NCBI RefSeq assembly: GCF_056746865.1
Contig: NZ_CM163382.1
DNA length: 64,000 nucleotides
Strand: one strand, 5' to 3'
Shown: piece by piece, positions 51,012 to 53,965 of the stretch
Position numbering within the stretch: position 1 is the first letter of the stretch
Layout: each line of letters opens with the position of its first letter
Made by a program: the position numbers and the translations under genes
The notes under the pieces: generated by a model
The model's input: the letters and a program-made list of their open reading frames with translations, nothing else
Told to the model about the DNA's origin: nothing
Databases searched by the model: none

Positions 51012-52436
51012 ATGCAACATAAGTTACTGATTAACGGAGAACTGGTTAGCGGCGAAGGGGAGAAACAGCCTGTCTATAATCCGGCAACGGGGGAAGTTTT
51101 ACTGGAGATTGCCGAGGCATCTGCAGAGCAGGTCGATGCCGCTGTTCGTGCAGCAGATGCAGCATTTGCCGAATGGGGGCAAACCACGCCGAAAGCGCGT
51201 GCGGAATGCCTGCTGAAACTGGCGGATGTAATCGAAGAAAATGGTCAAGTTTTTGCCGAACTGGAGTCCCGTAACTGTGGCAAACCGCTGCATAGTGCGT
51301 TCAATGATGAAATTCCGGCGATTGTCGATGTCTTTCGCTTTTTCGCCGGAGCAGCTCGCTGCCTGAATGGTCTGGCGGCAGGTGAATATCTTGAAGGTCA
51401 TACTTCGATGATCCGTCGCGATCCGTTGGGGGTCGTGGCTTCGATCGCACCGTGGAATTATCCGCTGATGATGGCTGCGTGGAAACTGGCTCCGGCGCTG
51501 GCGGCAGGGAATTGCGTAGTGCTCAAACCATCAGAAATTACCCCGCTGACAGCGTTGAAGTTGGCAGAGCTGGCGAAAGATATCTTCCCAGCTGGCGTGA
51601 TTAACGTGCTGTTTGGCAGAGGCAAAACGGTGGGCGATCCGCTGACCGGACATCCCAAAGTACGGATGGTGTCACTGACGGGCTCTATCGCCACTGGGGA
51701 ACACATCATCAGCCATACCGCGCCGTCCATAAAGCTTACTCATATGGAACTTGGAGGCAAAGCGCCAGTGATAGTTTTTGATGATGCGGATATTGAAGCG
51801 GTGGTCGAAGGTGTACGTACTTTTGGCTATTACAATGCCGGACAGGATTGTACTGCGGCTTGTCGGATCTACGCGCAAAAAGGTATTTACGATACGCTGG
51901 TGGAAAAACTCGGTGCTGCAGTGGCAACGTTAAAATCTGGTGCGCCGGATGACGAGTCTACGGAGCTTGGACCTTTAAGCTCACTGGCGCATCTCGATCG
52001 CGTCAGCAAAGCAGTAGAAGAGGCGAAAGCGACAGGGCACATCAAAGTGATCACTGGCGGTGAAAAGCGCAAGGGTAATGGCTATTACTATGCGCCGACG
52101 CTACTGGCTGGCGCATTACAGGACGATGCCATCGTGCAAAAAGAGGTATTTGGTCCGGTAGTGAGTGTTACGCTCTTTGACAATGAAGAACAGGTGGTAA
52201 ACTGGGCAAATGACAGCCAGTACGGACTTGCATCCTCGGTATGGACGAAAGATGTGGGCAGGGCGCATCGCGTCAGCGCACGGCTACAATATGGTTGTAC
52301 CTGGGTCAATACCCATTTCATGCTGGTAAGTGAAATGCCGCACGGTGGGCAGAAACTTTCTGGTTACGGCAAGGATATGTCACTTTATGGGCTGGAGGAT
52401 TACACCGTCGTCCGCCACGTCATGGTTAAACATTAA
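51012..52436 (+). CDS. patD: Gamma-aminobutyraldehyde dehydrogenase (474 aa)
   Basis: Aldehyde dehydrogenase family (catalytic Cys region, ELGGKAP). Confidence 0.9.
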
Positions 52437-52658
52437 GTTAAATGTTAGTGGCTGTTATAGGGCGGCCACTATCGTTTTAGGTTCTGAGTGTAATGGTGAT
52501 TAAGTATCAGAATGATTACATTAATAACTAGCGGAAAAATTAGGCAGTTATTATGATCTAAATGTATGTTGGTGATTTTTCATCCTGTCATAGTTGATTC
52601 GCATAAGGCTTTAGAGTATCGTTATTAACCTAATAATTTATAAGTAGAAGTATTAACA

Positions 52659-53468
52659 ATGAAAGTTCAATTGTATAAATTCACGGAAGATAAAAATAAA
52701 ACCCTTACCTTCAGGTGGACGAAAAAACACTTTGAGTTTTGTATGGATAATAAAATCTTTTTAAATCATAAGGGGAAGAAGTCGTATAAAGAAAGAAATT
52801 TATTTCTTTTCTCAAAAGGTGACAAGATAACAATTGAAGATAATGTTATTGCTGAAGAATATTCAACAATGCCTGTAAAAAATTTCTCCAGTGTCGGCGC
52901 TTTTTCATTCCCGACCTGTCATTTTACAGGGAATATACATATAGGTCGATTTTGTAGTATTGCATCAAATGTAAAAATAATGGGAGGAAATCATCCTTTG
53001 AATCGTTTTACTACTCACATGATGACTTATAACGGTGAATTTGATAAGTTTGCTAAGAGTGAGTTTGAACGTAGCTGGACATTGAAACCATTCATTACCA
53101 AACCTGAAAATCCGATTATAGGAAATGATGTCTGGATAGGAAATGATGTTGTACTGAAAGGTGGCATCGCAATAGGTGATGGTGCTGTTATTGCTGCCAA
53201 TTCCGTTGTTACCAAAGATGTGCCCCCATATGCCATAGTTGCAGGAGTTCCTGCAAAAATAATCAGATTTAGATTTGATTCAAATGTTATTGATGAATTG
53301 TTGAGAATAAAGTGGTGGAATTATAATTACTCAGATCTTCCGGATAATAACAAATGTGATGATATAAATTATTTTGTTGAAGAGATGAATCGATTGATAT
53401 CAAATGGAAATATTCAAGAGATGGACTATAAAAAATTCAATCTTTCTGAGATATTTAGAGACCTATAA
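52659..53468 (+). CDS. Hexapeptide-repeat acetyltransferase of the XAT family (streptogramin A acetyltransferase Vat / CatB-like) with N- and C-terminal extensions, 269 aa
   Basis: AT-rich ORF with no K-12 counterpart that I recognise; core IGRFCSIA...GGNHPLNRF...IGNDVWIGNDVV...IGDGAVIAANSVVTKDVPPYAIVAGVPAKIIRFRFD...IKWWNY aligns by eye with remembered Vat(D)/CatB motifs; true start uncertain (weak RBS, alternative ATGs at 52743 and 52869). Confidence 0.75.
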   Translation: MKVQLYKFTEDKNKTLTFRWTKKHFEFCMDNKIFLNHKGKKSYKERNLFLFSKGDKITIEDNVIAEEYSTMPVKNFSSVGAFSFPTCHFTGNIHIGRFCSIASNVKIMGGNHPLNRFTTHMMTYNGEFDKFAKSEFERSWTLKPFITKPENPIIGNDVWIGNDVVLKGGIAIGDGAVIAANSVVTKDVPPYAIVAGVPAKIIRFRFDSNVIDELLRIKWWNYNYSDLPDNNKCDDINYFVEEMNRLISNGNIQEMDYKKFNLSEIFRDL

Positions 53469-53813
53469 TTATCTGTTCTGCATGATAAATGGGCAAGATA
53501 ACCAGTTCGGGGTTTGCAATTTCAATGGGACAGCGTCATCAAGGAGGTTGCAATCATCCTGCCATGCATATACTTTACGCCATCTTTTTATATTTACTTT
53601 ATTCCCTGAAAGTATAAAGCATTTATAGACTCCCGCGCGTCTAAAGTATTGATGATAGAAAAATGTGAAAACAAGGTTCCCTTTGAATCAGTAAGCTGTC
53701 TGTATAGACGACAGGAGGGGGATGTTTTCTACTTATTTCAATGTAGATGTCAGGAAAAAGAAGTAAATATTAAGGATAATGTTGTAAACCTGGAGAGTAT
53801 GAGATGATCTTGC

Positions 53814-53846
53814 GTACTGTCAGAGCACTGATTTCTCTGACAGTAC
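53814..53846 (-). terminator. Stem-loop just 3' of yncL, probable terminator
   Basis: 12-bp perfect stem gtactgtcagag / ctctgacagtac with 9-nt loop. Confidence 0.55.
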
Positions 53847-53869
53847 GTGCTGCGTGCAAAATCACTACA

Positions 53870-53965
53870 TCAAATAAACCAGCCAAATCTCATAGAGATA
53901 AGAGTAAACAAACCAACAGCAGCAAAGACATTTATCAGTACTACAGTTCTACTGGAAACATTCAT
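53870..53965 (-). CDS. yncL: Small membrane protein YncL (31 aa)
   Basis: Reverse translation MNVSSRTVVLINVFAAVGLFTLISMRFGWFI; below the ORF-track cutoff. Confidence 0.8.
   Translation of the reverse strand: MNVSSRTVVLINVFAAVGLFTLISMRFGWFI

Follow-up and report, generated by a model that had tools for sequence, protein, structure and literature searches.

Between patD and yncL, this E. coli chromosome carries extra DNA with one gene for an acetyltransferase. What does the enzyme acetylate? The first-pass annotation of the window (the whole 64,000-nucleotide stretch of NZ_CM163382.1 that was analysed) had described it as a Vat/CatB-like xenobiotic acetyltransferase at an unexpected site. In that interpretation, the insert, its AT-richness, the open reading frame, the XAT core, and the catalytic histidine all held up; the unexpectedness and the membership in Vat or CatB did not. 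Our best explanation, to which we give about an even chance, is an orphan acetyl-CoA-dependent O-acetyltransferase with the XAT fold, whose acceptor is most likely a sugar or glycan hydroxyl and not chloramphenicol or streptogramin A.

The patD-yncL spacer (52437-53869) is 1433 bp long, versus 96 bp in the K-12-like genome CV601. (It had been put at about 1.4 kb here and about 0.2 kb in K-12. The direction was right, but the K-12-like figure was too high, and the contrast is larger.) We aligned the locus to four genomes that lack the islet (K-12-like, O4:H5, ERL03-1416, and ECCNB12-2), which placed the extra DNA at 52438-53774. This confirms that there is an insert relative to K-12-like genomes, and the K-12-like site is empty rather than occupied by the same gene. 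The parts of the locus are:

51012-52436, plus strand: patD (aminobutyraldehyde dehydrogenase), the left backbone flank (ORF list; PGAP annotation of matching loci)
52427-52437, no strand: left copy of an imperfect 11-bp direct repeat, TAAACATTAAG, which contains the patD stop codon (junctions and empty-site alignment)
52438-53774, no strand: AT-rich islet, 1337 bp (BLAST against CV601 (L002), composition, repeat scan, and empty-site alignment)
52446-52471, plus strand: terminator-like hairpin, 11 pairs and then TCGTTTTAGG, directly 3' of patD and within the islet (consensus scan only)
52578-52658, plus strand: 81-bp segment directly 5' of the gene, which it accompanies; also conserved in the Citrobacter loci (blastn against L003-L006 matches from 52578)
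52610-52637, plus strand: promoter-like site TTTAGA-16-AATAAT (consensus scan only)
52659-53468, plus strand: gene for the 269-aa XAT-fold left-handed beta-helix acetyltransferase (ORF list, HMMs, structure model, alignments, and dN/dS)
53469-53774, no strand: non-coding tail of the islet, 306 bp (ORF conservation check; Rfam)
53764-53774, no strand: right copy of the direct repeat, TAAATATTAAG (junctions and empty-site alignment)
53775-53794, no strand: 20-bp segment homologous to the empty site, with 7/20 positions differing (empty-site alignment)
53813-53847, no strand: perfect 13-bp inverted repeat on the backbone (inverted-repeat scan; kept in 6/6 aligned sequences)
53870-53965, minus strand: yncL (31-aa stress response membrane protein), the right backbone flank (PGAP annotation mapped from L001; ORF list)

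As had been claimed, the insert is AT-rich and has a single intact ORF of 269 codons. In 300-bp windows, the GC content is 0.29-0.37 over 52450-53950, versus about 0.49-0.57 in the flanks (about 52%). The ORF itself has 32.6% GC and 27.9% GC3, versus 52.6% GC for patD and about 51-52% for the surrounding genome region. At the islet's composition, about 7.5% of codons are expected to be stops, so the chance of an open run of 269 codons is about 1e-9 per start. The small ORFs in the 306-bp tail are not conserved as proteins: non-synonymous changes accumulate in them, and one is interrupted by a stop in XH989. We therefore rejected additional small genes in the tail. Rfam has no match in the islet at E values up to 1. 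The consensus scan found 7 promoter-like sites in the region, versus a mean of 7.5 in shuffles, so there is no excess. The hairpin after patD is weak evidence for a terminator because one site was found versus 0.8 expected in shuffles. The 13-bp inverted repeat is probably a bidirectional terminator that patD and yncL share in the empty-site genomes.

The protein is an XAT-type left-handed beta-helix acetyltransferase with conserved catalytic residues. It matches Hexapep (1.8e-09) and Hexapep_2 in Pfam, and its closest PDB sequences by phmmer are VatD (E = 2.5e-29), followed by VatA, CatB, ApmA, and PaXAT. An AF2 model of the monomer (pLDDT 89.4) has short beta strands across the repeat region, and the model's best 50 Foldseek matches are all XATs, with a probability of 1.00. 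These results agree with the hexapeptide-repeat core that had been recognized by eye. A catalytic histidine had been expected in the GGNH region, and it is there: in an alignment of 49 family members, His112 (in MGGNHP) is invariant, as is Trp159 (in GNDVWIG). So neither the XAT matches nor the catalytic residues are missing. His112 aligns to His82 of VatD and Trp159 aligns to Trp121, and both VatD residues are critical according to a preprint on fragment screening of VatD. Residues 112-119 are HPLNRFTT; in the same 49 sequences, Pro113 is invariant and Arg116 is at least 90% conserved.

P0127 from C. jejuni is 39% identical to the E. coli protein over 212 aa (140 bits by BLASTP). The alignment runs through the C-terminus and leaves the N-terminal 45-65 residues unaligned. 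P0127 is closer than vat(D) (89 bits) or catB3 (82 bits; both by tblastn). Its gene lies in the order cgtA, cgtB, cst-II, neuB, neuC, neuA, P0127, a GT2 gene, and waaF, and by synteny with the published locus, we identify P0127 as Orf11. In published work, orf11 of class A/B LOS loci is described as encoding a sialate O-acetyltransferase (PMC2174954, PMC8319020, PMC3513307; Houliston et al. 2006 as cited).

In a rough neighbor-joining tree from the core columns (a distance tree without bootstrap support), the E. coli protein groups with the Campylobacter proteins and with long forms from Gram-positive bacteria, and VatD and CatB3 lie outside. Identity in the core is 42-45% to the Campylobacter enzymes versus 39% to VatD or CatB3. 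The clade also has features that are absent from Vat and CatB: the catalytic His is the first residue of a motif, HP-x-x-R-[FI]-[ST]-T; the loop following this His is longer; and the C-terminal helical region has about 12 additional residues. (The motif was defined in this analysis and is not a published family definition.) Where the E. coli protein has HPLNRFTT, P0127 has HPMDRIST. Orf11 and the E. coli protein thus share the long-form clade, the HP-x-x-R-x-[ST]-T loop, the loop length, the longer C-terminus, and even the PGAP name, which is identical for the E. coli protein and the protein at the orf11 position. By sequence, the protein belongs to a long-form "CatB-related" clade that holds Orf11, the only characterized enzyme placed there. 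However, Orf11 follows neuB, neuC, and neuA in a locus for sialylated LOS, and the E. coli gene forms an islet of its own. There is no gene for sialic acid synthesis or for a glycosyltransferase beside it: the flanking genes are patD and yncL. Also, at 39% identity, it cannot be assumed that Orf11 and the E. coli enzyme have the same acceptor.

The genomic context of other relatives is mixed. The nearest ones, from Citrobacter (77% identity), Cedecea (71%), Apirhabdus (53%), Rahnella (46%), and Photobacterium, are all stand-alone genes between unrelated backbone genes. The Citrobacter loci share only the ORF and the 81 bp upstream of it with the E. coli islet. Association with glycan loci comes from relatives that are at most about 56% identical (with 78-92% coverage of the query). 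The relatives from C. lari and C. jejuni are in sialylated LOS loci; a relative from Providencia is in a prophage conversion region, where it adjoins a GT52 glycosyltransferase and a tail fiber gene; and a relative from Enterococcus thailandicus is in a teichoic-acid-type cluster. The relative from E. raffinosus adjoins a GT8 gene, the one from Azospirillum is in an LPS/heptose cluster, and the one from Paracoccus is in a glycosyltransferase cluster.

A sugar or glycan acceptor seems most likely because the only characterized enzyme that we could place in the clade, Orf11, is a sialate 9-O-acetyltransferase acting on C. jejuni LOS. The E. coli enzyme would be soluble and would use acetyl-CoA, presumably for O-acetylation rather than N-acetylation. 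It would be expected to form a homotrimer, as all solved XATs do, with active sites where the subunits meet (our model is of the monomer). The general base acting on the acceptor's hydroxyl would be His112, which sits on the loop projecting from the helix, and the acetyl site would be lined by Trp159. The candidate acceptors are glycans of the cell surface and their precursors, as well as sugars that are free or imported.

Several points speak against a sugar or glycan acceptor. The closest relatives are stand-alone genes, the E. coli gene has no gene for sialic acid synthesis or for a glycosyltransferase beside it, and P0127 is identified as Orf11 by synteny. In addition, core identity to the Campylobacter enzymes is barely above that to VatD or CatB3, and specificity shifts easily in the XAT fold, as in ApmA (PMC7885111).

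A doubtful but serious alternative is that this is a cryptic Vat/CatB-like O-acetyltransferase for xenobiotics or antibiotics, which would detoxify chloramphenicol, streptogramin A, or another small molecule. By both sequence and fold, the best matches to solved structures are Vat, CatB, ApmA, and PaXAT, and the catalytic His and the acetyl-site Trp are conserved. Standing alone on the chromosome in varied contexts, the gene is also arranged like the intrinsic chromosomal XAT genes, such as catB7 in P. aeruginosa or vat(F) in Yersinia. And ApmA illustrates that the fold can gain new antibiotic substrates (PMC7885111). However, the protein misses the cut-off of every HMM for a resistance family by more than two-fold. 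It scores 125.5 bits against the Vat model (NF000311; cut-off 300), 105.7 bits against the CatB model (NF000490; cut-off 350), and 81 bits against the ApmA model (NF000084; cut-off 550), with the match to ApmA confined to residues 70-230. Moreover, the matches to the Vat and CatB models do not discriminate, because the glycan O-acetyltransferase at the orf11 position of C. jejuni scores nearly as high (100 bits for Vat and 92 bits for CatB). Likeness to XATs had led to the suggestion of a resistance or detoxification gene, but such likeness does not by itself indicate a xenobiotic substrate, as the Campylobacter protein has it too.

The residues that bind antibiotics in VatD tell the same story as the HMMs. 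VatD's Y37, P90, N92, L93, P103, L108, and P109 correspond to T70, H120, M122, T123, T141, I146, and T147 in the E. coli protein, so 0/7 are kept (this count depends on the alignment). We take Y37 of VatD to be the counterpart of Tyr42 of VatA. Y37 was chosen because of the text on the equivalent Tyr42 in the paper on ApmA (PMC7885111), and the other six residues were taken from the VatD preprint. From the catalytic His onward, the sequence is HRMDGSTYPF in Vat and HRYDWASSFPF in CatB, and the E. coli protein has a proline in place of the arginine. As judged from the HMM scores and these residues, the protein, which had been called Vat/CatB-like, is outside both resistance families.

The overall comparison with these families is as follows. 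The E. coli protein shares with Vat (VatD, 1khr; VatA, 4hus) the fold, the hexapeptide core, the catalytic His, the acetyl-site Trp, and a C-terminal helix that starts with a KWWNW-type sequence, but it extends further at both ends, by about 33 aa at the N-terminus and about 22 aa at the C-terminus, and its loop after the His is longer. CatB3, CatB8 (8j40), PaXAT (1xat/2xat), and a V. cholerae protein (3eev) share the fold and the catalytic His, and their Foldseek scores are similar to those of Vat. CatB3 has about 39% core identity with the E. coli protein, yet it falls outside its clade in the neighbor-joining tree.

Also against a resistance enzyme, we found no homologs with at least 60% identity on true plasmids (the sole match, at 100%, is a 4.9-Mb chromosome that is mislabelled in PLSDB), and none in phage records. 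Also, E. coli is intrinsically insensitive to streptogramins, so it is not evident what the selective value of a streptogramin-acetylating enzyme would be.

ApmA and NeuO deserve separate mention. ApmA (7jm0), which acetylates an amine of aminoglycosides, shares the XAT fold, a similar length (274 aa), and an N-terminal extension with the E. coli protein, and its substrate is carbohydrate-like (PMC7885111). However, Foldseek aligns only the core (target-normalized TM 0.36-0.44). Together with the 81-bit HMM match, which also covers only the core, this led us to reject an ApmA-like architecture. ApmA is a separate lineage, because the long forms from Gram-positive bacteria in this clade do no better against the ApmA model (75-85 bits). 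NeuO, which O-acetylates polysialic acid in E. coli K1, is prophage-borne and has phase-variable repeats; no phase-variation tract was noticed in passing at the islet. It (3jqy) belongs to a different LbH subfamily, given that only the C-terminal hexapeptide turns align (residues 149-204 of the query, E = 3.1e-10). The analogy is functional: NeuO is a horizontally acquired left-handed beta-helix enzyme that modifies a surface glycan (PMC8319020).

More speculatively, the gene might represent an uncharacterized enterobacterial branch of sugar-acting XATs, with which the carrier lineages O-acetylate one particular carbohydrate, be it a sialoside, sialic acid taken up by scavenging, or a residue in the LPS core, ECA, or capsule; or it might encode an ApmA-like latent resistance enzyme for a class of antibiotics that is new to XATs. 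We consider this unlikely. If there is such a sugar-acting branch, then recognition by phages, lectins, or the host would be altered, and the carriers would have a lineage-specific modification of their surface or of a nutrient that is absent from all serotyping schemes.

It is also conceivable, but quite unlikely, that the enzyme is a soluble acetyltransferase for an endogenous or dietary metabolite that is not a carbohydrate (for instance a phosphonate-related one), so that the acceptor is neither a glycan nor an antibiotic. The top NCBIfam model is TIGR03308 (phosphonate metabolism, hexapeptide transferase family), at 131.6 bits, but this is far below the model's cut-off of 201.65. The match does not discriminate, because all of the clade members we tested, including the Campylobacter LOS enzyme, have sub-threshold scores of 110-139 bits. 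The neighboring genes mnaT/mddA, curA, and patD are involved in detoxification or modification, but they are part of the backbone and are present with or without the islet. And there are no adjacent phn genes.

Whatever its acceptor, the acetyltransferase gene is real, intact, and under purifying selection. Pairwise dN/dS is 0.07-0.15, both between E. coli alleles and in comparison to Citrobacter. It is very unlikely that the gene is a silenced relic (a horizontally acquired AT-rich gene that is unexpressed, unused, and kept by linkage only): its 32.6% GC in a region of 51% GC, the IS1 insertions that some strains have within the gene or next to it, and the truncated variants in public data would fit, but for E. 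coli alleles that differ by a dS of up to 0.10, dN/dS is 0.08-0.15, at least 80% of the query (the gene and its 81-bp leader) is present in 1150 of the 1155 genomes with any match, and the ORF is unbroken in both of the deeply diverged E. coli haplotypes. As a chromosomal AT-rich islet, it may still be silenced.

How common is the gene, and how did it get there? A chromosomal XAT at this junction had been considered unexpected, but of the 5426 complete E. coli genomes, 1154 (about 21%) have the gene at the patD-yncL locus, with a median of one copy per genome. The carriers seem to be the B1 and ST69 lineages. In public databases, at least 1000 contigs already carry the identical protein, called "CatB-related O-acetyltransferase" or "virginiamycin A acetyltransferase." We searched the literature by accession and by gene name and found no paper on this gene. 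So, the gene is catalogued in public annotation but uncharacterized, and it belongs to a known kind of enzyme.

The repeat scan and the ORF list showed no terminal inverted repeats, transposase, integrase, attC-like site, or second gene at the islet. We therefore rejected a mobile element (an IS, a transposon, an integron cassette, or a prophage): there is no mobility gene, and the only repeat is the imperfect 11-bp direct repeat. A role in anti-phage defense was also rejected, as PADLOC has no matches at the islet and the PHROG match is to a family of unknown function. The 11-bp repeat suggested independent deletions at the empty sites, but we rejected these, since all four sites share a 20-bp segment (at 53775-53794) that is unlike both occupied alleles. 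Among the six aligned sequences, this segment is fixed within the occupied class and within the empty class. The segment that all four empty sites have in common points to a single old event, over repeated deletions. The best explanation is that the islet has been present in E. coli for a long time. A scan of genome contigs for an outgroup, bearing on gain versus loss, found distant relatives of 31-49% identity among the matches listed.

In E. coli, presence or absence of the islet is a stable polymorphism: about 21% of complete genomes have it, and its gene is under purifying selection. It is of modest interest, and no major question is opened or settled by it. It is a small and tractable target because there is one gene to clone and assay, and identifying the acceptor would show whether enterobacteria have a stand-alone function for sugar O-acetylation. 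The practical value is in annotation. The label "CatB-related O-acetyltransferase," with the GO term "response to antibiotic," is also on relatives that are in LPS and glycosyltransferase clusters. Since PGAP gives this label to the E. coli gene, to the protein at the orf11 position, and to the relatives in glycan clusters, surveys of the resistome could miscount them as latent phenicol or streptogramin resistance genes.

The 269-aa acetyltransferase is encoded in an islet between patD and yncL:

51012-52436, + strand: patD (from the ORF list)
52438-53774: the islet, 1337 bp of extra DNA (from alignment to four empty-site genomes of different backgrounds)
52659-53468, + strand: the 269-aa acetyltransferase ORF (from the ORF list)
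53870-53965, - strand: yncL (PGAP annotation transferred from a 97.6%-identical genome)

Pfam detected hexapeptide repeats in the protein. By sequence, its best matches among solved structures are VatD (E = 2.5e-29), VatA, several CatB proteins, ApmA, and PaXAT, all confined to residues 60-230. When we searched the PDB with Foldseek, using an AF2 model (pLDDT 89.4; input alignment of 49 sequences), the top 50 matches were these same XAT (hexapeptide-repeat acetyltransferase) enzymes, and covered only the core of ~190 residues. His112 (in MGGNHP) and Trp159 (in GNDVWIG) are invariant in the 49-sequence family alignment, and they align with His82 and Trp121 of VatD, which a VatD preprint names as critical. 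The first-pass annotation was correct that this is an XAT-type core with a catalytic histidine. We expect a soluble left-handed beta-helix acetyltransferase, presumably trimeric. Reasoning from the homologous enzymes Vat, CatB, and PaXAT, we propose that acetyl-CoA would lie along the helix interface, that Trp159 would form part of the acetyl subsite wall, and that the acceptor hydroxyl would lose its proton to His112.

The nearest characterized relative appears to be a sialate O-acetyltransferase, placed by synteny, rather than a resistance enzyme. In Campylobacter jejuni, P0127 (276 aa) immediately follows neuA, and its gene order (cgtA, cgtB, cst-II, neuB, neuC, neuA, P0127, a GT2 gene, waaF) is that of the orf11 position in class A/B LOS loci. 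Published work (PMC2174954, PMC8319020, PMC3513307) describes the orf11 product as a sialate O-acetyltransferase acting on O-9 of the terminal sialic acid. P0127 is 39% identical to our protein over 212 residues, reaching the C-terminus (140 bits); vat(D) and catB3 score 89 and 82 bits. Over the core columns, the Campylobacter enzymes are 42-45% identical to our protein, and VatD and CatB3 are 39% identical. A distance tree of those columns (without support values) groups our protein and its enterobacterial relatives with the Campylobacter enzymes and with a set of Gram-positive proteins in one clade, leaving VatD and CatB3 outside. Clade members share HP-x-x-R-[FI]-[ST]-T after the catalytic histidine, a longer loop after that residue, and a longer C-terminal helical region. 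By these sequence measures, the protein seems closer to the Campylobacter enzymes than to VatD or CatB3, by a modest margin. (Among P0137, P0141, P0143, P0144, and P0151 are Campylobacter and Helicobacter relatives of 370-420 aa, in which an extra PF28160 domain is fused to the acetyltransferase core, as well as relatives from Brochothrix (388 aa) and Listeria (318 aa) with long N-terminal additions.)

Glycan loci are frequent settings for relatives whose match spans 78-92% of the query. Those from C. lari and C. jejuni lie in sialylated LOS loci, and one from Enterococcus thailandicus lies in a teichoic-acid-type cluster. The E. raffinosus relative is beside a GT8 gene, the Azospirillum relative is in an LPS/heptose cluster, and the Paracoccus relative is in a glycosyltransferase cluster. 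In Providencia rettgeri, a 56%-identical relative adjoins a GT52 glycosyltransferase in a prophage (L016 8576-9893; also L017 and L018). This pair is flanked by a tail-fibre gene on one side and defence cargo on the other, which is the customary site of prophage lysogenic-conversion genes. (The cargo is DarT with a NADAR domain protein at one locus, and a retron-like reverse transcriptase with an AAA-type ATPase, adjoining an integrase, at two. Directly downstream of the acetyltransferase is a conserved 250-aa protein without a family match.) The closest relatives, from Citrobacter, Cedecea, Apirhabdus, Rahnella, and Photobacterium, are solitary AT-rich genes amid unrelated backbone genes. The Salmonella copy is on short contigs and adjoins pagK. 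What the E. coli and Citrobacter loci have in common is limited to the ORF plus the 81 bp before it. Our leading candidate for the acceptor is a sugar or glycan hydroxyl, which we regard as about an even bet. More speculatively, Arg116, which is conserved and lies four positions C-terminal to the catalytic histidine, could contact an acidic sugar.

The first-pass annotation had instead proposed a Vat/CatB-like xenobiotic acetyltransferase, perhaps for cryptic resistance. The protein scores 125.5 bits against the curated NCBIfam model for Vat (cut-off 300), 105.7 bits for CatB (cut-off 350), and 81 bits for ApmA (cut-off 550). According to the VatD preprint, the antibiotic site is lined by L57, P90, N92, L93, P103, L108, and P109. 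Almost all of these residues, and Y37, are replaced in our protein (in the alignment, Y37, P90, N92, L93, P103, L108, and P109 correspond to T, H, M, T, T, I, and T, respectively). Also, the residue after the catalytic histidine is arginine in Vat and CatB but an invariant proline in this family. Given the widely missed cut-offs and these replacements, we rejected Vat or CatB identity. As a control, we ran P0127, a glycan enzyme, against these models, and it reached 100 bits for Vat and 92 for CatB; these scores are likewise sub-threshold, so such XAT matches are uninformative about a xenobiotic substrate. A cryptic xenobiotic or antibiotic acetyltransferase is possible but unlikely, and that the acceptor is another small metabolite seems quite doubtful.

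NCBI and UniRef already list the identical protein, from at least 1000 contigs and also from Shigella flexneri, under names such as "CatB-related O-acetyltransferase" and "virginiamycin A acetyltransferase". A literature search by accession or name found no paper on it. It is a catalogued protein of a known kind that is uncharacterized. PGAP also gives the CatB-related name to the C. jejuni protein at the orf11 position, to GT8-adjacent genes, and to genes within LPS/glycosyltransferase clusters; in three plasmid records (L114-L116) it attaches GO:0046677, "response to antibiotic". Some members of the sequence cluster to which the C. jejuni protein belongs are even called "antibiotic acetyltransferase". 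The generic label and the GO term are not evidence of resistance, and a useful correction is that the nearest characterized relative acetylates sialate, not an antibiotic.

A silenced relic is very improbable. By our arithmetic, 269 open codons would arise by chance at the ORF's composition with a probability of ~1e-9, and its pairwise dN/dS is 0.07-0.15. Given the end of patD and the position of yncL, the spacer is 1433 bp, versus 96 bp in CV601, a K-12-like genome with an empty site. Its GC content is 0.29-0.37 versus ~0.5-0.57 in the flanks (ORF: 32.6%, GC3 27.9%; patD: 52.6%). The open frame, its dN/dS, the spacer length, and the GC drop bear out the earlier report of an AT-rich insert. 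Low GC (32-37%, GC3 28-35%) is kept in the E. coli, Citrobacter, and Cedecea copies (52659-53468; L003 6001-6807; L007 6001-6807), with synonymous sites saturated (dS >1.6). Because low GC persists despite this saturation, the AT-richness is being maintained and is more than a leftover from a recent transfer.

An imperfect 11-bp direct repeat (TAAACATTAAG and TAAATATTAAG) borders the islet, in which we found no terminal inverted repeats, mobility gene, second conserved ORF, or Rfam match. Just to its right, 53775-53794 (20 bp) has 7 mismatches between occupied and empty sites and is invariant within each class at the sites examined. Neither simple insertion nor repeat-mediated deletion explains this difference.

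Of 5426 complete E. coli genomes, 1154 carry the islet, without exception at this locus and with about one copy each. There are two main alleles. The window's allele (at least 99% identity) is in 186 genomes, including a strain labelled O15:H18 ST69; the other is ~97% identical to it, and its carriers include O104:H4 and O111 strains. (We take the ST69 carriers to be phylogroup D and the O104:H4 and O111 carriers to be B1.) dS between the ORF alleles is 0.10. The adjoining patD haplotypes diverge by ~4%, with 57-63 mismatches over 1425 nt that are distributed uniformly, save in the last ~125 bp. (Judged on its own, this divergence gave the impression of being high for a core gene of E. coli; between these strains, identity in neighbouring ydcZ is 94-95%.) Yet patD from XH989, a carrier, is 99.5% identical to that of non-carrier CV601. 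The islet leader (52438-52658, compared to L001 and L105 3139-3346) is 88% identical between alleles, with a 13-nt indel, versus 97-99% for the ORF. In another carrier, GF60, the ORF and patD are window-like but the leader is like that of XH989, which implies recombination breakpoints inside the 1.3-kb islet. A contig scan for outgroup copies that might tell gain from loss gave only distant relatives among the matches listed. We conclude that the islet is an old presence/absence polymorphism reshuffled by recombination, and we reject recent acquisition.

IS1 has landed recurrently in the patD-yncL region. It separates the acetyltransferase gene from yncL in E. coli WP7-S17-ESBL-01 (L106 3003-3700), interrupts the acetyltransferase gene in Z1323CEC0001 and 19451123 (hence two annotated pieces), and lies next to patD in one K-12-type lab stock. 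Finally, NZ_CP141089.1 (E. coli KE47, 4.94 Mb), listed in PLSDB as "plasmid unnamed1", is evidently a chromosome and gives false plasmid matches for chromosomal genes.
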